This document shows positions 1 through 13,868 of a stretch of 64,000 nt of DNA, piece by piece. The notes under the pieces are model-generated. The model worked only from the letters and a program-made list of their open reading frames with translations, was not told where the DNA came from and searched no databases. Source of the DNA: Hydrolagus affinis. Lineage: Eukaryota. The DNA is taken from the NCBI GenBank assembly GCA_012026655.1, contig JAAILG010000595.1, positions 1-64,000 on the forward strand, read 5' to 3'. The position numbers and the translations under genes are program-made. Positions within the stretch are counted from its first letter, which is position 1, and the number at the start of each line of letters is the position of its first letter.

Positions 1-385
1 GGGATGTGTGGGATGTGGGGGGTGGGGGGGGGAGCAAATTTGCAGATCGCAAGCTAAAATGTTCAAAGATTCAAAGTCCTGGTGTTGAGGCTGGGCTGAT
101 TTTGGAATTTGGAGACGGTTTGTCTTCATTCCACGCTTTGGAATTTTCAACAAATCGTCTTGGGAAGGTTAAAGCAATAAGAGATCACACTGTTTTAGGA
201 GTAAAATTCACTAACATTCACATGGCCCAATGCACGTTTGCTGGTGTTGTAACACTGACGTGCAACCACTCACCCACCATTTGAAAAGAAACTATGTATC
301 CTAAAGTGCTTCACTGTAAAATCTAGTGACTGTGTATTTTGCAGGCGAAATTTGGGGCAGTTAGAGAGGTGATTTCATGGTTATG

Positions 386-604
386 GTTAATAATAATCCC
401 TCCCACACAAAAAACCACAATAATAAGATTCGGCATATCAATTCACAACTGTTTGTGGGGACACTGCTATGCGCAATTGGCTGCCACGTTTCGCCCACAA
501 ATAAACAGTTCACTTTACAGTATATTCAGTGAAGCGCTTTGAGACGTCTAGAATATGTGAAAAACGCTATACTCAAATGCAAGGATTCTTATTCTTATTA
601 TTAT
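386..604 (+). mobile_element. 5'-truncated copy of the young SINE (representative of many truncated copies)
   Basis: Body and tail only. Similar fragments at about 2290-2410(+), 2880-3060(-), 3340-3495(+), 11028-11277(-), 13700-13780(-), 21020-21370(-), 25515-25640(-), 36680-36860(+), 37970-38075(-), 38458-38585(-), 41180-41365(+), 49470-49600(+), 52090-52235(+), 57040-57375(+), 59738-59950(+). Confidence 0.85.
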
Positions 605-831
605 GGTCATCTGGAATTTTACTAAATACTGTACCTATAAACCGGGATTGTGGAATCTCTCTTCTCAGTATAAACATGCCTTTTATCTCAATTACCAAAC
701 AACCCATTACCTTGCGGACTCCGTGTTTTCTTCCGTCCCCTTTGATTGTGGCGGTTACATCTGGTGCAACCTTCAGTTGTTATTCTCCTTTGTTTTTTTT
801 TAATGTTTGCTTTCCCGTTTCCACACGGCAG

Positions 832-959
832 CCAACTCGGTGATAAAGTGGCAGTTTACTTCGTCAACCGGGATGGGGAAACTCTTACAGGAGTGGGCAA
901 GGAGGGTGAAAGTCTGCTGGACGTCGTGATGAAGAACGACTTGGCTATCGATGGGTTCG
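832..959 (+). CDS. FDX1: Adrenodoxin (mitochondrial [2Fe-2S] ferredoxin) coding exon 2
   Basis: Polypyrimidine tract + cAG at 829-831; translates (S)[43 protein letters not shown], matching the adrenodoxin DK-x-x-V-x-F-x-NRDGE...SLLDVV...IDGFG segment; donor G|GTGAGT at 960. Confidence 0.95.
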
Positions 960-1622
960 GTGAGTATGTTTGAACGCACGCGTCTGTAGTTTGGCACGCG
1001 TGAACGTAGCGTTTTCTTTTTAGAGGATGTTTTAAACCAAACCGGCAAACCGAGAATGTCTGCAAGATTGAATTAGTCACTTAAGCTCCAGATAAACTGC
1101 CAAGCCACTTTAAAGCATAACGGACACAGCGCAGTATTCTACAGCGATGGCTCATTAACCACACATTGTTGTAGAGATCAAAGTGTTTCATTAAAACAAA
1201 CACACATGGCAAGTTGTCCGAGTACTCGTGCTTTGTAGACACTGCACTGGAGGTTATTGATTGTTGTTCTGGCTTTTTGATTGTTCAAGTTTTGTGTTGT
1301 TACTGCTTTCAATAAAAACTATTAAAAAAAATTATTGGCAGCGTGAAGCACTTTGAGAAGGCACCCCACCCTCCCCCATGACGGAAAAGGTGCTATATAA
1401 TAACAGTAATAATTATTTATCCTAATAATTCCTGCCTTTGTATGATTATTATTATAATAATCTTATCATTATTATTATTGGAACCTCATCACGTCATTGA
1501 GATATCTCAAAGCCTGTATTTATATGCTATCTAATCTGGGCAATTCATTATTACTCAATTCAAATTTTATACGACTGTCAACTGCACTTATGAATGAGTT
1601 ATGAGTTGTCTTTCTGCCACAG

Positions 1623-1752
1623 GTGCCTGTGAAGGAACTCTATCCTGCTCGACCTGCCATCTAATCTTTGACAAGGAGACCTTTGAGAATCTGGACGAGA
1701 TTATGGATGAGGAGATGGATATGCTGGATTTGGCCTATGGGTTGAGTGATAC
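1623..1752 (+). CDS. FDX1: Adrenodoxin exon 3 (Fe-S binding loop)
   Basis: AG at 1621-1622; [43 protein letters not shown](T) contains C-x5-C-x2-C and the acidic DMLD helix; 130 bp; donor AC|GTAAGC; phases match both neighbours. Absent from the ORF track. Confidence 0.97.
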
Positions 1753-3582
1753 GTAAGCAATGTTTTTGTCATGAAAGGCCCGTTTCTTGAACCATATGTA
1801 GGTTGTGTGCAAACTCCCAGTGCCACTCCTTTGATCTGCAACATTCATTTAAAGGCCCCCGGCGTGTTTCACGTACCTATTGCCAGAGTTAATCGCCTAC
1901 GATTCTGAAACCACTCCCAGACCAGATGTGATCTCTGAGGGAATCATAGAGCTTTTTGTGCTTGAGCTAAAATGATCACAGCTTTATTAGTGATTTTTGT
2001 TTTCCTGTTTCCCCACATTAAAACCCAAATTGGCTTCGTGAAATAGCCGCTATTTCTCCAATTGAAAATCCTGAAAATGTCAGGAATTTCTGTTTGCGGG
2101 AGAGGGATGGGGAGGGGGCAGGGAGAGCAGGTGTGTGGATTAAATTCATAGTTTATTCCCCCGATAGAAAAATGTGATTGCGCGAAAGTGACCAGGGTAT
2201 TTTTCGGGGTTAAAATGGTGGCTTAGTGGCATGAAAACCCACTGTAACATCTAACATCGTTCCATCGTCCATTTCACCAAGATCAATTTTTGCCCGCAAA
2301 ATATACAGTCAATTCACTTTATGGTACATTCTGTGAATCTCTTGGAAGCCTTGAAGACATGATAAAGCGCTGTATCAAATGCAAAGATTAGTTTTATTAT
2401 TATTAATAAATAACCCTTGCAATTCCTCTTTCAATAACCGAGATAACAGCGAACTTAACCCAACTAAGAGCAAATCAACCCCAATTAAGAGTCAAATTGC
2501 TTGGGAACAAGAGATTAAAGAGCATGGACTATATCATTGCAGTGGAGTCAGAAGCCATTGGAATTTGGATTAAATATCTGCAGCTATTTCGTAACCAAGG
2601 TTCATCCTTATCTCTTAAACACGGCTAAAATTGAAATACTGCGGGAGACCTTGAAATTATCTGTGTAGTGTTATTTCAAAGGGGGAATGTTGGCAGCCAG
2701 AGCAAAATACAGGCAGCCGGGAAAGAAGGAGGGTGGGCGGTAGGGAGTGATAAAATGTGTAACACATTTTACAGAAGGTTTACATTCGTTTGTTTCTTGT
2801 TGCACTTTTTAATTGCTTTTCAAGACATCTTACATGTGGGTGAGACACGTATTACTTTGCTAATACTGTAATAATATTAAAAATAATAATCCTCGTGCTT
2901 GATATAGCGGTTTATCCACGTCTTCAAGACGTTTTCAAAGCACTTCACAGGATATACTGTTAAGTGAATTGACTGTATATTTTGTGGGCGAAATGCGCAA
3001 GCAGCCAATTGCGCACAGCAGTGTCTCACAAACAGTCGTGGATTGAAGCGACCAATTTATCTTTGAAGGGGGCCGAGCAGGGAATCGTGCTTGGGATCGA
3101 TAGTTCAATGGAAGAGCAAATTCAATGGGTCCAATCCTTCATTTTTATTGGAATACATTTAAATTTTTATCTCAATCGTTAATTATTACAATAATAATTA
3201 TTATTAAAAATGACAAAAGGCGGAATCTCCCAGGGACACGAATCCGCAGGAACAATCTGTAAACTAGAACGCGAGAAGGACCAAGCCTCTGTTTAAAATA
3301 GAAACTTCCGGGAATGCGGTCTGCCAGATCAGTTGCCGTACTTACAGAATGGGGCGATTTAATCTGGTGGGCAATAAATGGTCAGTGACTTTCGAAACAA
3401 CTTTACAGTATATTCTGGGAAGCGTTGGGAGACCTCTCAACGACATGATAAGGCACAATATCAAATGGCAAGGATTATTATTGTTTTTATTATAATAATT
3501 GTCTAATACTCATCTAACAACACCTCTCACCCCCCCACCCCCCCGCCCCACACCTCACAGTACCAATGCGTCCTTTTTCCAG

Positions 3583-3694
3583 GTCACGCCTGGGTTGCCA
3601 GATCTGCTTGAATAGGTCTATGGAGGGGATGGTCATGAAGGTGCCAAAGGATGTGGCTGACATCAGGAAATCAGTTGGTGCAAACAAGCAGTGA
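3583..3694 (+). CDS. FDX1: Adrenodoxin terminal coding exon 4
   Basis: Acceptor tcctttttccAG|G; SRLGCQICLNRSMEGMVMKVPKDVADIRKSVGANKQ* with the SRLGCQ fourth Cys ligand; TGA at 3692-3694. Confidence 0.96.
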
Positions 3695-3997
3695 GGCCTC
3701 GCCAACCACCTGTGAAGACATACCCCTCAGCTTTGCCCGTTTACCCACCTCTGTAGAATCTCGAAGTCAGCGACACTGTAATGCACTCAAGTAGCCAGAT
3801 CTGAGCTGGATCCCATTTCTGCCGCTGCCAACAGAGACAGCAGTGATGTCAGGCAGTCGGTGCAAGTGATCGACTACACTGAAGTGTATTAGCTGGAAAA
3901 TCTTATTACAATACAGAGTAGAGCCCTCCCTTGTACTGGCTCCCAGACTCACCACCAACCCACCGCCTTCATATTTGGTTAGTAGTGACAAAATCAT

Positions 3998-4097
3998 CAG
4001 TTCTGACGAAGGGTTGTAGACCCGAAACGTTGACTCTTTTTCCTTTCTCCATGGATGCTGCCTGACCTGCTGAGTTGCCCCAGCAACTTCTGTTTTT
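3998..4097 (+). mobile_element. 100-bp Penelope-like-element-derived insertion carrying a minimal hammerhead ribozyme motif, with 13-bp TSD
   Basis: Flanked by the perfect direct repeat GTGACAAAATCAT (3985-3997 and 4098-4110). Contains AGTT-CTGACGA-A-GGGT/tgtag/ACCC-GAAAC-GTT-GACT at 3999-4035, followed by a TGCTG/CAGCA hairpin. Confidence 0.75.
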
Positions 4098-4693
4098 GTG
4101 ACAAAATCATTGTTTGTTATACAATGTGCGGAGCTGGTTTAGTCAGTGACGTTGATTGCTGATGTCTCGATGAAACAAAGGCATTAGATGTTATTCACTA
4201 TGCAGATGTTGGTGCTCGTTAACTTGTCTCTGTGATGATTTGACATTGGTTCTGCAGTTCGGCCGCACATGAGAGTTAACGAAAAAGCATGTGTGCTGTT
4301 GCTCCCCGAGTTTTCTTGTTGGCCTCCCTCTCTTTAAGCCTCTCGCCTGGCTGGTTTGACATCAGTTCAGATCAAGCTGCATAACTATGTGAGCGTTGAC
4401 ATGGAGTGGTCTTTAGTTGGTAAGCAGGGTACTGTACTGTTCAGAACCACATGCAACATGAGCTGTTGTGGTTGTAGTGGGAATCTTCAGTGCTGCAAAC
4501 CAGTGGTGCGTTATCTAGTCAGCCAGCAGGTGGGAGTATGAAACAATACCAGTCACCATTCTCTCTCTGTGTCTGTGCGAATGACCCTGTGCGTTCACTG
4601 CAAATGCTTTTACAACCTCTCATTTTGGTAGATAAACAAAAGTGGAAGATTGAACTCTCTTTCTCTCTCTCTCTCTCCCTCTTTCTCTTTCTC

Positions 4694-4699
4694 ATTAAA
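4694..4699 (+). terminator. Candidate FDX1 polyadenylation signal (ATTAAA)
   Basis: First canonical AATAAA/ATTAAA hexamer I found after the FDX1 stop; GU/U-rich sequence follows at about 4730-4745. Weaker variants AATACA (3910) and GATAAA (4631) occur earlier. Confidence 0.4.
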
Positions 4700-5057
4700 T
4701 ATGTGAAATGGCAACTAACTGCACCGTCTATTATGGTTTGTGATTAATAATTCATTGGAAAAAAATTCTTGACGACGTTAATCATGACTTTGGACTTGGC
4801 TGGCGCCCGTCACATCAGGAGGACGTCGCAAAGTTCCTCGCAGGATTCTCGTCACCAAGTTACTAAGCTTTGGGGGAAATCATTTGCTGCCTAGTTGCTA
4901 CAGGCAATTCATTTTGCGGTGTATCCTGGGAAGCGCTTTGAGACGCCTCGAAGATGTGATAAGGCGCTATATCAAATGCAAGGATTATTAGTTATTAATT
5001 TTACTTGGGTCAATGTGCAAATCAGAAATGTCACATTAATACAACTGTGAAGTTTGT

Positions 5058-5357
5058 GGAGTCCTGTAGCTAGTGGTTAGAGCGCTCGCCTTACAAATGA
5101 GTGACCTGGGTTCGATACCAGGCAGGGTGAAATCTTGGGCAAGTTTCCTTACTCCACATACCTGACAAAAAGCCTGAAAACCCCCCAATAATAAATTGAT
5201 CATTTCAGTCCAAGACTGTTTGTGAGACGCTGCTGTACACAATCGGCTGCTGTATTTCGCCCACATATATACAGTCCATTCACTTTACAGTATATTCTAT
5301 GAAGCGCTTTGAGACTTCTAGAAGATGTGAAAAGTGCGATATCAAACGCAAGGAATG
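5058..5357 (+). mobile_element. Young tRNA-derived SINE, full length (subtype B)
   Basis: Head GGAGTCCTGTAGCT-AGTGGTTAGAGCG (A box) and GTTCGATACC (B box); shared body; L2-like tail GAAGCGCTTTGAGAC...ATCAAAcGCAAGG. Confidence 0.9.
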
Positions 5358-6773
5358 TTTTGCAAGTGATAAAGGATCAACTCTTCTCTTTAATGTGTAA
5401 AAGTACTTGCATTGGATACAGCCCTTTATAATGCCCTAAAACCCTTCACACAATAAGCTGCACGCCCCACTCTGCTGCATCCTGACAACACGTGGGAAGA
5501 AGGTTATTAATCTGGTACCATCGAGAAGGTTACTTTCCGCACATCGGGAACATTAAATCCCAGCTTGTTGGGATTCGGTCAATAAATGAGAAAATTCCCT
5601 TAAACCCACAGCCATCGGTTAAGTCCTCCACCCTCAGGAATCTTTGGGTTTAAGAAATGGACTCTTATTTCCGCTTGTTGGAACTCTCGAGGATAGAACG
5701 AAGTCCGTTGAGTGGAACTCCTTTCCAGCTGCAATCCTTTTTTTAGCAGTTGTACCATCTATGGAAAAAGTTTGAACCCAAGGTACGTCCTGTCGAATGC
5801 CGTGTGCGCTCGCTCGCTGGGATACATGTTTAACATACCAGCACCATCGCAGTCCTTCCAGTTAACAGCCTCGCTGATGGGAAACAGGATAGTCACCGTG
5901 GTGTGAAAGAATGTTGCTGCATCAAATGAGACGAGCGGGAACGTTTTAACGTGACTATCTTTTATTGTATAAGCCCTCCTTGGTAACCAACCACACGCAG
6001 TTGCACAGAAAAGGACGCAAGATGTTCCACAGCCGCCCAACAACGAGTGGCTCTGTGTACATAAACAAGAGGAGGTGATAGCTCCTTACAGCACGAGACA
6101 GGCCCACATCCACTGGCACTTCAGCAGGAGTCGACAAACCAGAATATACTCTCACTAACCGTATGACCAGATACCGAGCGGGGCGCACAATGTGGTTTAG
6201 CGCTTAAAATCCACAATTTATGTAATTTTTCTTCCGAATGTAAGTTCCTACCACAAGCTCGCAGTGCTGTTCCCAGATACTGGGGACTTGAGACTTTCCT
6301 TAGCCCCCCCGCCACCACCCCCATAATATAATGTGTTGAATCGGCAACCAAAGAATTCTTGCGGAAGTTGCTCGCTTCAGATGAGCTTCGTTCCTAAATA
6401 AAGAGTTGAGATTGATTCTCCTCCGTGAAGTGATATCAGGAGTCATCGGCTGATCTGGGACTCGCACAGAAATGAAACATTTCAATCCAGAAAATTCACT
6501 CCAATTTAGAAGGGCATCTAAACGGCCCTTGCAAATTTTATTTGGGTTTGACACAATGCAATGGGACAGCTATACAGTAGAGAGCTCCATCACTACATTG
6601 CTTGGGACCAGCCCCATATAGAAAGGAAAAGCAGTGCATTAAATATCAGGTCATTAAACCAAATAGAATGTACTAGAAATGTCTTCCTTTAGGAGATAGG
6701 ATGGGACTATCGAACCCCAAAATACTAGTTCCCCTCTTTTAAACTCCCCTCATACAGAGTGTCATTCCAACGT

Positions 6774-6774
<1 letters not shown>

Positions 6775-6806
<32 letters not shown>
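6775..6806. repeat. (CA)n microsatellite
   Basis: Direct read. Confidence 0.95.
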
Positions 6807-6808
<2 letters not shown>

Positions 6809-8579
6809 GGAAAGTCTTTCTCTCTCTGTCGTCTCTCACAGTACCAGCCCCATGCTCTCTTTCTCTCTCTCTTCTACTAAACCTCAAACAGTACCTGATG
6901 TACAACTGCAAACTCAATAAAAACAGGCACCAGTTAAAACAGTCAGCCCAAAATCTCAGCGCCTATTTGGTGACCTTGTTTTCTCTAATCTTATCGTGCG
7001 GGGAATGTGGGGCTCACGGCCGCAATTTGTAACAAAAGTACGTGAGTTTCAAGCATATTGTTTTGTTTTTTTCGCAGAGCGTTTTAGTGAATGAGTGCTA
7101 TTGATATATTTAAAAAAATATTGTCAGAGATGCAACTACATATTGTGGGTCGAACGATAACAAAGTCAGTTATAAAGTCACAGAAATTTACAACTCAGGA
7201 GAATGGCCAGTCAAGCCCATCATTGTCCCTGCTGATTCTTTGGAAGATAAATCCAGTCAGTCCCATTTATCCGCCTTTCCTCATGCCAATTACTCCTTTC
7301 TGATATCTAACTCGTTCCCTACTGAATGCTAATATGGATCCTGCCTTGGGTTGCTGTTGTCAGTCAATCAATGATAAAAAAAAAAGAGTTTTCCTGCTCC
7401 TCGTTTCGCACTGACAGTTCTATTTTGGCTTTGGCTCTTTTCAGATTTCAACTCCTGGAAACAGCTGGAGGAATAATCCCGTATAAATTATTGGCTCTCG
7501 CGCTTCAACCGTGTGCCCTACGTTTGGACGGTTTGCGTTTCCTTCGCACGCCCGCCCTGCAAGTGCGAAGACTTGACGGTGATACCAAGCAGAGAGATTC
7601 TCTGTGGGTGAATCAGTTATCGTGTGTCCCCCCACCCCACCAATTCTCTAGCTAGCACACAAGCTCACAATGCTTATGCAGACACCAGTCCTCTGTACAA
7701 ACGATTACATCTGAATTACAAGAAGAAAAAAAATAACGAAACACAGTTCGAACGTGTTACTATTATCCAGCATTACACTGTAATGGCACATTGCATTAAA
7801 TCATCACTTTAAAGCTTTGACCTATTCCTTTTTCAACAAAAAAAACACGTAAATAATTTTAGTGTCTGCCGGGTGTAATCAATAGATATGCGGGTGGGTG
7901 CCCTACAGAATTCTTCGCATTGAGTAATACAGTATGATCAAAGTAATTATTAGTTGGCATTAAAATCAACTGGCAAACAGTTTACAGGTTGAATCAGTAT
8001 CGCACAATGCAGGGGCCTCTGTTGCTCATGCAATGTCAGAACGAAACAATATTTAGAATTTTTCTTTAAAAAAAGTATCGACATCTTCTAGGACCAAAAA
8101 CCGTGTACCTTGGTATATATTTATATCAAAATCCAAACATTCTACACAAAAATACGGAATGTACCAAAGCGACAGGTCACAATGTGAAGGGGTGGGTGGG
8201 TGGGTGGGGGGGGGGCGGGGGTAACCTCTGGAGAAGCAGAGGCAGCCGCAGAGAAATAAGAAAGAAATGAACAGCTCAAGGAATAACATATTGGCTCAAC
8301 GGCAGGCGTTTGAATCAAACAGATAGGTTTAGGGCAGATTGCAAGACGGAGGGCTGGGGGTGTGTGGTGGGGTGGGGGGCAGGTGTGGAGAAGAGGGAGC
8401 GCGTCACTACAGAGTGTGACATGATCACCAGTGATGATATCACACTCCGCATTCCCACCCCACGCCACCTGGCCATAGATGATGATCTGTGGTGGGTGTG
8501 ATGTGCAGGATAAGGATCAATGTGAAACACACACATGCTGAGGTCAGGAAGGTTTGGAGTGGGAAGCCCTGTGGTAATA

Positions 8580-9019
8580 CAGTAAAACTCACGTATCAGT
8601 CGGGAACGCGACAAATAACATGACTTACTTGAAGTCCGAGTTACAGGTAAACTGTATAAATCGTGTAAAATCCGATTTAATCAATAAACTAACTGCGTAA
8701 TTCGGCATAGCTGGTATGTGAGCAGGCGGTAGTGCAGGGGTAATGGAAAATAAGGGGAGCGGTGTTAGAAGTTAGAGGACGATTATTACTACTAATAAAA
8801 ATCCTTGCATTTGATATAGCGTTTTTTCACATCTTCCAGACATCTCAAAGCGCTTCACAGAATATCCTGTAAAACGAATTGGCTGTGTATTTGTGGGTCA
8901 ACGTGAAACTTGCAATGAAATCTAAGTGGTGTTGATAGGACTCAGGGCGGACTTAAGAGCACGTACGACTTTGTCCACTGTACGATTTGAAAAAGGCAAG
9001 ACTCGGGCGGGTTTTACTG
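8580..9019. mobile_element. Tc1/mariner (Tigger/pogo-like) non-autonomous DNA transposon, interrupted by a SINE fragment
   Basis: TA-CAGTAAAAC... / ...GTTTTACTG-TA inverted ends; SINE tail on - strand inside at about 8782-8905. Confidence 0.65.
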
Positions 9020-9190
9020 TATTAAGAGTCCTCGTGCTCATTGACAACCTACATGTGACCATTCCCGCTGGGGCAGTAGCAGTAGTGAGCCATAACCAGA
9101 ACACCGGGTTTTAAAAGTGTGTGGCTGAAACTCGCAATACACATAACTTAATTAAAAACACATTGAAGGATGTGCGGGATTTTACACTTC

Positions 9191-10905
9191 TCAGACGTAC
9201 GATTCCTCTGTGAAAATTAATTGTTCAAAGTCTTCTAATTGGGGGTCAGTGCAGCGGCGGCGGCGCCACTCTTGCCTGCTCCTTATTAACTCGCTCTCCA
9301 CCGCTGCGGCCTCCCTCACGCAGTTCTGGGCCTCGCTGTGAAGGAAGTATTGATGGACCGTGTTTTGGACGGGCGGAGGTAAGATGATGCGGATTCTGTG
9401 CCGTTTGCTGTTCGCGCTTTTGTCCCGGTAATAACCCTGGGGGCAGGCGGACTGGACGGAACAGTCCGGCGACTGTTCGCTGCCCTGGGACGCGGAATCC
9501 GCGGACGAGCCTTTTAGGAAAGCGTCGCCGGGTGTGATGTGTAATCTGCGTGCAGCGGACTGGAGGACTAATGGCGCGTTCTGGCCGTAAAAGACAGTTT
9601 GCGGGATGTGGACTTTCAGTGTCTGCACCGGTCGACCTACTCCATCTTTCTCCTGGGCCGTTGAGGCCTCACAGTCCCCGCCGCTGCCCAGCTCCTGCCC
9701 GCCTGGATCTCCCCCGCGCTGAAGGGTTAGCGCCTTCCCTGGCGCCATATAGAAGGTTATCTTTGTGCGCTTCATGTTCTCGCTGCAGGGCGTCTGCTGT
9801 GTGTCGGGTGAGGCTGGGAAGGTCTGGGACGCTTTGGGACGAGACGTCTCATTCTCCGCCTCCCCGCAGCTCCCTCTGTCTGCTTCCTCCCTGTCGTTCT
9901 GGGCAAACAAAGTCCCTGTTTGGCCCTTTCTGATGTAAGCTACGCTGGTGTAACTTTCCCCGTCCTCCCCTTGGCCTTTGACGTCCATGTCGAACCCTTG
10001 ACCTTCCGGGCAAGACGCTGGGCTCCACGGTTCCCGAGCCTGCTCCGCCTCCAAGTCCGCGTACTTCTCCGCCTCTTCGTCGTACCAATCTACGTCCTCG
10101 AGGCAACGGGCCATCGAGGTGGAGGGAGCTCCGTGCAGCTTGCCGGGAATTTTATTGGGGGAACAAGGTGAGGATACCTGCCCTTTGCCGGAGTTCCCGA
10201 ACACGGTCTCGCTCCGGCCAAACACAGACGAGTCGGAGCAGGAAAAGGCGCTGTCCACCGAGCTGAGTGAGGACTCCGATGGCGACGTGGTGGGAGAAGA
10301 TAGGCTGGAGAGGCTTGATCTGGTGGATAGGTTCATTTTGTACGAACTAGGCTGTATCAGCCTGGGATTGATCTGCGGCGATCTCCAATAAACATATCTG
10401 TTCTTATTAGAGCCAGGTCCTCTCCCATCGTCCAGCAGCCTCTGGCTCTCGATCTGCAGTCTCTTCAGCTGCTGCAAGTAATCGATGTGGCCGTGAGTCA
10501 CGGCAGCGTCACAGCTGAACTGACGGGCCACGGGCTCGTGAGACAAGGCCAGATGGTGGGCCAGGCAGACACTGGGCTCTGACGAGCAGCGATCTCGAGC
10601 GGATCCAATGCTCTGGATCCCGACGAGAGAAGAGACCGAGGAGTACAGAGACTCGCTTTCCAGCTGCTCGGAAAGATCGGTACCGTCGTTGTTCTCCAGA
10701 AGAACATTTTTGCACAAATCATCGTCAAAGAAGCCCTGCCCACTCCACGTATCCTTTGCCTCCTCGTCGGGGTCCAGCAAGGGGTCGTTCAAGCCGCTAA
10801 AGATGTCGTCGCTCTGCTGCCCCTTGTCGACCCTTCTCCTCTCCTGATCGGAGAGCGGGGAATCCATGTCATCGGAGGAATAGTGCCGCTTCAGCAAATC
10901 AACAT
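9191..10905 (-). CDS. ARHGAP20: ARHGAP20-family RhoGAP, terminal exon 15 (Ser-rich low-complexity tail ending ...FTEESYV*)
   Basis: Lies within the 589-aa ORF; acceptor tgttgcAG|AT at 10905 completes phase-1 codon G|AT (Asp) from exon 14; contains DRCSSEPSVCL, ARQFSCDA and SSVDSAFS motifs typical of ARHGAP20 tails. Confidence 0.92.
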
Positions 10906-11428
10906 CTGCAACATCAAGTGAAACCGAGAGAAGGATTAGGACCATACGGACAGAGAACACCAGGCAAGGACAAGATCTTTAGATTGTAAGAACGTAAACG
11001 GGAAAGCAAAATCAATCCTTGAGGATATAATAATAATAATAATCCTTGCATTTGATAAAACGTTTTTCATGTTTTCTAGACGTCTCAAAGCACTTCACAG
11101 AATATACTGTAAAGTGAATTGACTGTACATATGTGGCTGAAACGCGGCAGCCAATTGCGCACAGCAGTGTCCCCACAAACAGTTGTGGATTGAAATGACC
11201 AATTTCTTCTTATTATTTTTTTTGGGTATTATTATCAGACATGCGGAGCAAGGAAATTGGCCCAAGGTTTCGCCGTGTCTGTAATCAACACCTGGAACAA
11301 GTTGCCAGGAAGGGTGGTTAAGGTCAGGACACTGGACTCATTTAAAAAGCACGCTTGATGGGTTAAATGGATAATAAGATTTTTTTTGCTAAAACACAAA
11401 GTAGCAGCGATGAGGAGATTGCACTGAC

Positions 11429-11526
11429 CCAGTGAATCTTCCAGATTCTCCTGCTGAACGTCGGCGGAACCCGCGAAGAGTAAAAGAACTTCATCGCCGA
11501 AGATCCTGGGAGAGTTTTCTATCAGG
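11429..11526 (-). CDS. ARHGAP20: ARHGAP20 exon 14, partial (5' end in assembly gap); end of RhoGAP domain
   Basis: LIENSPRIFGDEVLLLFAGSADVQQENLEDSL-G|GTCAGT; LIEN..IFG is the canonical RhoGAP C-terminal motif; abuts the N run. Confidence 0.9.
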
Positions 11527-11626
11527 NNNNNNNNNNNNNNNNNNNNNNNNNNNNNNNNNNNNNNNNNNNNNNNNNNNNNNNNNNNNNNNNNNNNNNNNNN
11601 NNNNNNNNNNNNNNNNNNNNNNNNNN
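11527..11626. other. Assembly gap (100 N)
   Basis: Run of 100 N; hides the acceptor and first codons of ARHGAP20 exon 14. Confidence 1.
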
Positions 11627-12303
11627 GACATTTCTGTTAATAACAATCCTTGCAGTTAATGTAGTGCCTTATCACGGCAGAATACATTTTAGATCATTAA
11701 TTTGTTTAAAGCAATAGCGCGGACACAGTCACACTACTTACTACGCCGAACATCTACGGTTCAAACTGTACTGTTAGCTCAATCACAACGGCATTATCAT
11801 GTACATGGATCTATGCGGATCCTCCCGAGCTGTGGCAATTACACACACTTATGATTGTTAGTCTAATTGCCCACATAAACACACACGGAGGCCAAGCTTT
11901 TCCGCTGAGTTAAAGTCACCAAAGTTCTCCCCGGGTTGATGTTTTGCGAAGAGACTGTCAAGGATTCTCTGAGCATTGGGCCGACAGGGGCTGGAAGGTG
12001 TTACCTAGAGTGTGGGATTGAGAGCTATTATGCCTATCCTCTGGACTTCTAATCACAGTTAAACACAGGTACTGAATACAATTAAATGCTTCTGAATACA
12101 ACTATCATTGTTCTTCCAAGTGTTTCCGTTGTTGGTCAAACTACTGACTCGACTACAAGACAAACTGTCCAGCGCCTTGGGAAGGTCCTGCCAACATGAA
12201 AGGCACTGTACCAATGTCATTTTGTTGTTGTTGTTGAAAAGAAACATGGTAACAGTACTTTGCGGACACCCTGTAGAATTCAGGGAAAGAGAAAGTACGT
12301 TAC

Positions 12304-12493
12304 CTTTCTTGTGGATTTACTCTCTTCCTCGGGGCCCACAGGCCCGGGCGGCCACAACATGTTGGGGGCTATGCAAAGAGCCAGGTTAAAAGCCGTCATC
12401 TGGTTTTCTTCCGACCTCTTCTCGATGCGGCGGAGAATGGTGAACAAGTGACGAAGGAGGAGACGATTCGCTTCGGGAAGCTCTTCCACGAGT
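12304..12493 (-). CDS. ARHGAP20: ARHGAP20 exon 13 (RhoGAP)
   Basis: 190 bp; LVEELPEANRLLLRHLFTILRRIEKRSEENQMTAFNLALCIAPNMLWPP...STRK; acceptor ttgcAG, donor AAG|GTAACG. Confidence 0.96.
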
Positions 12494-12709
12494 CTGCAAA
12501 AACATCGGGAACGCGTTATTATTCCGGCATCCAGCGCACACCCGGGAAACAGAGAGATCTCTTAAGCTCGCAGCATTTCTCTGCTCGGAATCACACACCC
12601 ATCAACACTACTGTCCGCCTCACGCACACACGTCGATACAGTCAGTCTCGGTCGGACCGATGCATGGGCAGCCACGCAATCACATCCTCAAAAGAGGCTT
12701 TCTCCTCAC

Positions 12710-12819
12710 TTTTTCAAGGCTTGTATCCTTTCCTCTTCGTTCTCGTTCCCTGTTCCTTCCATCCACCTGTCGTACAGCTCCGACGACAGAATGCTACCGG
12801 GGATATTGCGGAGAAAATC
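12710..12819 (-). CDS. ARHGAP20: ARHGAP20 exon 12 (RhoGAP)
   Basis: 110 bp; DFLRNIPGSILSSELYDRWMEGTGNENEEERIQALK(K); AG and GTGAGG boundaries, phases consistent. Confidence 0.95.
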
Positions 12820-12912
12820 CTGCGCAGGGAAAGTAACCTCCTGTCAGAAAATATTTGCAGGCCCACGAAAAACTTCCAGACCACCTTCCTCCCACCACCA
12901 AAAAGATATGTA

Positions 12913-13329
12913 CAGTAAAACCTTTGTTATCAGGCACCCTCGGGACTTGCCCAGAGCCAATTAATCAAACACGCCGGATATTCGAGTGGCAAGTTGCCGA
13001 AAATCCAACCCCCAAACATGAACTTATTTTAAAACATACCATATTAATAATAGATTGAATAATAACAGAATATTGTAGGGATACTTACCAATAAAGCATT
13101 CCAGCACACTCGGTAAAATGATCGTTAAAAAATCATTCCAGCATTCGGTGGGTTTCATAAGTGCGCATTTGCATAGGCATTGCACGCATGCGCAAAGTGA
13201 GCATACTCGCGAGTGTCCCAGACGGCTACGGTATGAGACCTCAGTTGCTGAAATGGTGAATTGTATTGGGAGATACCGGTTGGTTGAGTATGCCGTTTGG
13301 TTGGGTACCGGATACTCGAGGTTTTACTG
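12913..13329. mobile_element. Tc1/mariner (Tigger/pogo-like) MITE
   Basis: About 27-bp imperfect TIRs (CAGTAAAACCTTTGTTATCAGGCACCC vs reverse complement CAGTAAAACCTCGAGTATCCGGTACCC); TA on both sides (12911-12912, 13330-13331); no transposase ORF. Confidence 0.85.
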
Positions 13330-13358
13330 TACAAAGACTGTCGAACAGAATATAATAC

Positions 13359-13520
13359 CGTAATGACAGCAGCTGCCACAAAGACAGATTCTATTTCCAT
13401 GTGCACTTCATTTCCAGAATTCAGCTTCTCCTTCAGCTCCTTGCAGGTCTTGGCATTGGCCGAGCGCCTGAAGATGCCTTTGGTGGTGGGACCTTCGTGA
13501 TATAGAAGCAGTAGCATGTC
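13359..13520 (-). CDS. ARHGAP20: ARHGAP20 exon 11 (RhoGAP, arginine finger)
   Basis: 162 bp; DMLLLLYHEGPTTKGIFRRSANAKTCKELKEKLNSG...VAAAVIT; GIFR catalytic Arg intact; donor ACG|GTATTA. Confidence 0.96.
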
Positions 13521-13868
13521 CTGGAGGAAACCAAAGGCGTCGCGGGTCAGAATGTGTCACTGATTCCACAGCCAGCCAGATTCTTTTTTTTATTTCTGCG
13601 TCTCCCTTACACGGAAACTCTAGAGAAGTGAAATTGCTGGCCCACTCTGGGGGCAAGTGAGGAAGTGATGCTGAAAGCTGGGTTGGGTTACAATAAGCAC
13701 TAATAATAATAATAATCCTTGCATCTGATTTAGCACTTTTCATGTCCCACAAACAGTCGTGGATTAAAACGACCAATTTATCGCAAGACAGGTTTGGGGC
13801 GAAGAAGCCATCTCTTTCTCTTGGCCACCAAACTGAGGATCGTACAGCTTTCTAAAGGGGTCGCTTAC

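Follow-up and report, generated by a model that had tools for sequence, protein, structure and literature searches.

The 64-kb window, by which we mean the whole stretch of DNA that was analysed, contains in the 3' UTR of an FDX1-type ferredoxin gene a short end-piece of a Penelope-like retroelement (PLE), and the hammerhead motif carried by this piece is likely a near-silent passenger in the host mRNA. We base this reading on the observed family membership of the unit, the ORF of a parent element, the target-site duplications (TSDs), the two classes of 3' ends, the 5' boundary, the position inside the mRNA of a close relative and the even RNA depth across the site. The feature is an ordinary transposon stub, like other stubs of PLE pLTRs.

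The 100-bp insertion and its hammerhead motif

The inserted unit (3998-4097, + strand) corresponds to positions +1 to +100 of the pLTR end of the retroelement family and belongs to its short 3' end class. It is bracketed by two exact copies of the 13-mer GTGACAAAATCAT, the left TSD at 3985-3997 and the right TSD at 4098-4110 (+ strand), which are the only two occurrences of this sequence in the window. Within 3695-4640, the 13-mer is the longest direct repeat at a spacing of 50-200 nt, and a length of 13 was reached in 0 of 100 shuffles. The 13-bp TSD that an initial annotation had described around the unit is therefore present and above chance. The right TSD begins with GT (4098-4099), and the family sequence continues with the same two bases, giving a 2-nt microhomology at the 3' junction. 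The unit differs from the family majority at a single position, G4077. No tandem copy of the unit was detected at the locus by the repeat search or by the hammerhead descriptor, which matched once in the window, and folding of the whole unit gave nothing unusual (z -0.57). We rejected its identification as a tandem non-LTR retrozyme, as the window holds one hammerhead-bearing unit and no repeat of it.

A minimal type-I hammerhead motif lies at 3999-4035 (+ strand), at the beginning of the unit. It was defined by a descriptor search built on the features given in the available part of PMC4209133; the descriptor was run on both strands of the window, and chance was estimated from 150 simulated 64-kb windows. 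The sole match on either strand is at 4003, and the simulated windows gave a single match in total. All parts are on the + strand. Stem I pairs 3999-4002 with 4032-4035 (A-U, G-C, U-A and U.G), the core CTGACGA spans 4003-4009 and is followed by an extra A at 4010, and stem II pairs 4011-4014 with 4020-4023 and can be extended by U4015.G4019. The GAAA box is at 4024-4027, and the triplet GTT (GUU in the RNA) at 4029-4031 places the predicted cut at 4031/4032. The motif thus has the minimal hammerhead (min-HHR) core CUGANGA...GAAA...NUH with stems I and II, together with the finer features of this class: the unpaired A4010 between positions 9 and 10.1, the pair G4011-C4023 (G10.1-C11.1) and the palindromic C4028/G4029 (15.2-16.2). 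The coordinates given by the initial annotation for the hammerhead parts hold, except that stem III had been read as AACGTT. The outer letters of AACGTT are the core A14 and the H17 residue, so that the loopless palindromic stem III usable in a dimer shrinks to ACGU at 4027-4030 (+ strand). Recognition by Rfam covariance models, which had been put forward as a check, did not follow: no hammerhead was reported at E<=10 in window positions 1-10000.

We considered whether the GUU triplet reflects decay of the window copy and rejected this idea, since GUU is the state of the whole family. Genome-wide, 2472 core matches have GUU (a looser core pattern, with 0 matches for its reversed control) and 50 have GUC or GUA (42 GUC and 8 GUA). 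Two successive subfamilies both have GUU, not GUC, at the cleavage triplet, which indicates that the family spread with this triplet. The stem changes seen among copies are one-sided and keep the pairing: 9 of 59 copies have C at 4002, and the other subfamily has C-G as a fifth stem II pair; for both observations, the sampling patterns fix part of stem II.

The host gene and the position of the element in its mRNA

Three exons of the host gene were delimited on the + strand, exon 1 being outside the window. The exon at 832-959, assigned from sequence, sense RNA depth and splice sites inspected by eye, ends in ...DGFG, the exon at 1623-1752 encodes the 2Fe-2S cysteines (adrenodoxin E 1e-16, ferredoxin-2 E 2e-4), and the last exon at 3583-4700 combines the coding end with the ~1 kb of 3' UTR that holds the element. 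Exon 1623-1752 is joined to 3583 by 34 spliced reads in RNA of a close relative, B, and the exons together specify an adrenodoxin-type ferredoxin; Pfam searches with single exons gave a weak Fer2 match. The neighbour of the ferredoxin gene, in tail-to-tail arrangement, is a RhoGAP gene on the minus strand (9191-13556 and extending further; Pfam E 4e-7). It may be ARHGAP20-like, given the FDX1-ARHGAP20 synteny.

A second FDX1-type paralog is encoded on another contig, C31068 (2603-2728 and about 4300-4420), and by alignment count its 2Fe-2S exon is slightly nearer to bovine adrenodoxin (34 versus 31 of 42). In zebrafish, one of two paralogs alone is confined to steroidogenic tissue, according to the available part of PMC4769370. 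With two FDX1-type paralogs in the genome, the label 'steroidogenic' for the host gene is unproven.

The stop codon TGA is at 3692-3694 and the unit starts 304 nt downstream, and no AATAAA or ATTAAA occurs between the stop and 4694; both points had been made in the initial annotation and are borne out by the sequence. RNA data came from three runs (X2, X3 and X4) of one sample of relative B, tissue unspecified, which differs from the window by 17 fixed changes in about 970 unique bases (about 1.7%). Sense depth shows no gap between the last coding exon and about 4650, and it is zero from 4670. As the reads are cut at the 4650-4699 repeat, we place the transcript end at about 4650-4720, where GATAAA at 4631 and ATTAAA at 4694 are the candidate poly(A) signals. 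No RNA joint skipping the element was seen in the relative B reads. The transcript therefore extends well beyond 4097. As had been proposed, the 3' UTR of the FDX1-type gene includes the unit in sense orientation; judged from relative B RNA, it is located downstream of the stop codon and upstream of the poly(A) site.

The base at 4077 made it possible to follow the window insertion among its relatives. The family has T at this position in 59 of 59 sampled copies, and G was found in 2 of 29 other loci of a separate listing. In X2, 45 sense reads are non-T at 4077 versus 6 antisense reads, a number that matches the FDX1 depth and indicates that the same insertion is present in the 3' UTR of relative B; the 10 non-T reads of X4 do not exceed what other copies contribute as background and were given no weight. 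In a second relative, A, a contig covering 3468-4023 runs 26 nt into the element, and the 5' junction is thus present. It follows that the insertion is older than a split of about 2%, which is too recent for selection to show. No empty allele was seen.

These data bear on the idea that the cassette has been co-opted, in the manner of the Clec2 ribozymes, and is kept for dose-dependent de-tailing of the ferredoxin mRNA. We regard this as extremely unlikely. Its position class is that of the Clec2 ribozyme, which lowered the output of a reporter by 80% (PMC2950038, in excerpt), the insertion is found in three lineages (window, A and B) about 2% apart, and no fixed core change is visible in the relative B reads. 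However, at about 1.7% divergence the chance of zero changes in 100 bp is about 0.17, and the intactness of the core consequently shows no conservation. Moreover, with 2472 cores spread over 1.11 Gb, chance would place about 67 in 3' UTRs if these are taken to total 30 Mb, so that some insertion into a 3' UTR is unsurprising at this copy number, and the regulatory significance that had been attached to the position is not supported. Exonic PLE-derived copies already favour 3' UTRs, and in Xenopus the exon-overlapping copies of PLE-derived retrozymes tend to lie there (bioRxiv 10.64898/2026.07.22.740005, in the part available). The 7.9-kb contig of the paralog contains no copy of the family, and RNA depth across the site is even (see later in the text).

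A Penelope-like family and its parent element

The unit belongs to a family of thousands of copies. We counted 881 exact matches to its 32-nt core in the genome and 2172 exact matches to a 35-nt motif of its 3' part, the reversed control giving 0 in both cases; mean identity to the window unit is 95% over 59 sampled copies. Longer copies extend 5' through a pyrimidine-rich 3' UTR into the C-terminus of a GIY-YIG protein. One near-full-length, frameshifted copy (L091; contig C11589, about 1700-4900, minus strand) has the organization of a Neptune-type Penelope element: a partial pLTR, an ATG at ~+174, an ORF with DKG, RT, linker and VY...YIG endonuclease, and then the hammerhead pLTR and the tail. 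In this copy and in two others (L024 and L040), the hammerhead motif is part of an RT/GIY-YIG element's pLTR. The RT matches Pfam RVT_1 with E 1.5e-6, below Pfam's cut-off. No GIY-YIG family was reported by Pfam in the parent pieces; the C-terminal GIY-YIG was assigned by eye from VY...YIG and HFN...GLN, which we take to be the wording of the endonuclease motif.

The linker CQRRRCNTC of L091 is CX4CX2C and fits the pattern CX2-5CxxC, which is absent in Penelope/Poseidon according to the available part of PMC8557442. This argues for Neptune rather than Penelope/Poseidon, and the parent element, placed by its motifs, is likely a Neptune-type PLE. L091 is broken, as is L092, the other long copy examined, and an intact autonomous element was not found among them. 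Thus the Penelope-type retrotransposed origin suggested at the outset is upheld by the copy number, by the RT/GIY-YIG parent and by TSDs across the family. As a separate observation, one family copy (L031) is split mid-unit by about 49 bp of unrelated sequence.

How the family copies arise

From the first 100 of the 2172 matches to the 3' motif, we analysed 90 loci with 93 anchor matches, 1 of them unresolved, and 83 insertions; the sampling anchor ends at +101, and copies with earlier 3' ends are outside the sample. The 3' ends form two equal classes about 35 nt apart, at +101-112 (46/92) and at +131-150 (46/92). In PLEs, the tail is the stretch between two internal RT start sites (PMC11167929), and a tail of 30-40 bp is also described in PMC8557442 (in excerpt); our two classes match such a tail. 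Insertions are inverted in 41 of 83 cases and simple in 42. A short and a long arm are paired in all 36 classifiable inverted insertions (5 could not be classified), which likely reflects the use of one RT start site per DNA strand. A TSD of 8-16 bp flanks 20 of the 39 scorable simple insertions, versus 0 of 116 mismatched controls. The family thus displays the layout of EN+ PLEs, with a partial-tandem pLTR, an inverted 5'-truncated arm, a 30-40 bp tail and a TSD.

The 5' ends are sharply positioned. They fall at -1..+12 in 47 of the 66 insertions that reach +12 and at -15..-2 in 0 of 19 (Fisher p 8e-9, the bins for 5' ends and for arm length having been set after the data were viewed). Two sources for these ends were rejected. 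Cleavage by the hammerhead would place them near +35, and only 3 of 83 are at +30..+38. A CCCCAG 3' splice site as the boundary is contradicted by the TSD or fold-back letters at the junctions and by the lack of a common upstream exon. We infer instead that the hard boundary at about +1, immediately ahead of hammerhead stem I, reflects run-off of the RT at the end of its template, likely the transcription start. The sequence CCAGTTC at +1 presumably fits the initiator consensus. pLTRs have been reported to contain the transcription start (PMC8557442 and PMC3846280, both in excerpt). The window copy, with its extent from +1 to +100/102 and its 13-bp TSD, is the commonest kind among the sampled insertions.

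The sharpness of the 5' boundary near +1 and the prevalence of very short copies would also fit an origin of the stubs from a non-autonomous master of their own, SINE-like or retrozyme-like and about 140 nt long, and not from run-off on the RNA of the full element. Short and long copies, however, have sequence and variants in common, 19 of 83 insertions extend 5' beyond -16, some of them into the ORF, and the arms of one inverted insertion can differ in passing +1 (L104, L115 and L126). No tandem array is found at the locus either, and we consider a separate master unlikely.

With run-off on the element RNA as the preferred origin, the insertion in the ferredoxin gene could have proceeded as follows. 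The GIY-YIG endonuclease of the element would have made a 13-nt staggered cut at the target, and the RT would have started copying at the nearer of the two internal start sites (about +101), helped by the 2-nt microhomology. It would then have run to the template's 5' end at about +1, likely the element transcription start, and the hammerhead would have been carried along because it occupies the first 37 nt of the element RNA. Most ferredoxin transcripts would escape cleavage, as the hammerhead in them lacks both a stem III and a partner copy, has GUU as its triplet and is predicted to misfold.

In five other copies (L002, L009, L010, L029 and L142), short fold-back letters (CCTTCGT-like) precede CAGTT. 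This suggests that the 3' end of the cDNA snapped back on a CAG-AA-CTG mini-hairpin and primed itself.

Evidence bearing on cleavage

RNA of relative B passes through the element evenly. Summed sense depth is 77.9 upstream and 71.1 downstream, about 9% lower; the value at 4077, 76 non-T reads, is an upper bound to which other copies contribute. Relative to the predicted cut, 3943 lies 88 nt upstream and 4077 lies 46 nt downstream; in X2 these positions are covered by 55 and 45 reads. Toward the true 3' end, X2 depth drops to 30, 18 and 4 in successive bins, whereas no such taper occurs at the element. No step, taper or pile-up of read beginnings or ends was seen at 4031/4032 in the relative B depths. 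Judged from the shape of the depth in one sample, most of the sequenced FDX1 molecules appear to be intact across 4031. It should be kept in mind that steady-state RNA represents survivors alone, and that if cleaved molecules decayed fast, levels would fall with no ends to be seen.

Folding predictions point in the same direction. The minimum free energy structure of the monomer pairs the core with the cleavage strand, and the probability of stem I in the full UTR is 0.06-0.08. The predicted catalytic dimer is at +7.1 kcal/mol relative to two monomers, with an ensemble Kd of about 110 uM. However, these nearest-neighbour energies leave out the tertiary contacts of the core and the natural GUC copies L187 and L209 show the same predicted misfold, which makes the folding argument weak. 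Trans partners do exist, since both strands of other family copies give rise to RNA in the same relative B cells.

Tests published for related ribozymes are in agreement. Cleavage of a single min-HHR was undetectable, and dimeric or trimeric constructs cleaved weakly in vitro (PMC4209133, in excerpt). The Anolis PLE hammerhead cuts with protein only and is dispensable for insertion (PMC11167929). The NUH class of sites includes GUU, GUC and GUA being described as the fastest (PMC3138052, in excerpt).

A rather unlikely alternative is that the hammerhead cuts slowly or conditionally, so that a fraction of the FDX1 transcripts is cleaved and the mRNA is modestly lowered with no selected regulatory role; cleavage could be constitutive, or depend on the element protein as in Anolis or on many partner RNAs. 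The core is intact and in sense, with the stop codon before it and the poly(A) site after it, GUU counts among the accepted NUH sites, a PLE protein does bring about cutting in Anolis, family RNAs are abundant in the same cells, and the lower summed depth downstream goes in the expected direction. Yet this depth difference is opposite in X2 (58.5 to 48.8) and X3 (12.5 to 16.0), and the absence of a taper or end pile-up at 4031, the very weak predicted dimer, the weak cleavage of dimeric and trimeric constructs and the lack of an intact parent among the copies examined all argue against it. A particular form of this scheme, a protein-assisted or trans-dimer switch in which Penelope de-repression (in the germline or under stress) would trigger the cut at 4031/4032 and de-tail the ferredoxin mRNA, seems very improbable. 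If true, it would tie the electron supply of mitochondrial P450 and Fe-S systems to transposon activity, and dozens of other mRNAs with sense copies would be affected likewise.

Altogether, the de-tailing and dose-dependent control envisaged in the initial annotation find no support in the even depth at 4031/4032, in a GUU triplet that is standard for the family or in a trans dimer predicted to be very weak, and the other possibility that it had named, an inactive lone minimal monomer, fits the evidence best.

Comparison with known systems

PLE minimal hammerheads have already been published (PMC4209133, in excerpt), and PLE-derived 3' UTR copies are already described in a preprint (bioRxiv 10.64898/2026.07.22.740005, available part). 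A literature search that covered few subscription papers found no prior report of a hammerhead in an FDX1 mRNA.

The motif resembles the min-HHRs of metazoan PLEs, as given in the available part of PMC4209133, in its core, the unpaired nucleotide between 9 and 10.1, the G10.1-C11.1 pair and the palindromic 15.2-16.2 positions, as well as in its 4-bp stem I, its pLTR location and its occurrence mostly as single dispersed copies of truncated elements. It differs in having a stem II of 4-5 bp, whereas the Schistosoma families have 7-8, in the use of GUU in both subfamilies and in the presence of the window copy in a host 3' UTR. With EN+ Neptune-type PLEs (PMC8557442 and PMC3846280, in excerpt), the family has in common the C-terminal GIY-YIG, the CX2-5CxxC linker, the partial-tandem pLTR, the inverted 5'-truncated arm, the optional 30-40 bp tail and the TSDs. 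In contrast to these elements, the copy in the window is a stub of 100 non-coding bp that lacks the tail, and the clade is assigned from motifs only.

The Anolis Poseidon element PAc (PMC11167929) is comparable in its two internal RT start sites, which give the tail, and in the location of its hammerhead near the ORF start. In PAc, the uncleaved RNA is the insertion substrate and the cut site coincides with neither starts nor ends of RNA-seq reads; here, too, no RNA-seq ends are found at this site. However, PAc belongs to the Poseidon clade and has its ATG inside the hammerhead, whereas L091 has its ATG some 174 nt downstream of +1.

Clec2 3' UTR hammerheads (PMC2950038 and PMC6765202, in excerpt) likewise lie between stop codon and poly(A) signal, and they are discontinuous full ribozymes, conserved across mammals and active in reporters. 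The window hammerhead, by contrast, is minimal, young and one among thousands, with no RNA sign of cutting, and it cannot form a complete fold in cis, stem III being loopless and the transcript containing no second copy. The non-LTR retrozymes of the bioRxiv preprint (10.64898/2026.07.22.740005, in excerpt) are also PLE-derived, carry type-I hammerheads and have exonic copies that tend to be in 3' UTRs; they are tandem repeats with at least 2 hammerheads, whereas we found a solo stub flanked by TSDs.

The locus provides a natural in-cell test, in which an intact PLE minimal hammerhead lies in sense orientation in the 3' UTR of an expressed housekeeping-type gene and reads pass over it evenly. 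This fits the published view that such motifs are inactive alone and unnecessary for insertion, the role of the hammerhead being called unclear (PMC8557442, in excerpt), and makes the locus a ready-made reporter construct for this question. If an element protein could switch on cleavage, the thousands of stubs would constitute a latent route by which a transposon degrades host mRNAs.

Finally, at 5060-5360 the window contains a SINE of an abundant kind, with a tRNA head and an (ATT)n tail, which is also found in at least a dozen other places; its head matches the Rfam tRNA model with E 0.003 at 5060-5130. Elsewhere, this SINE is the insertion target of several Penelope stubs.
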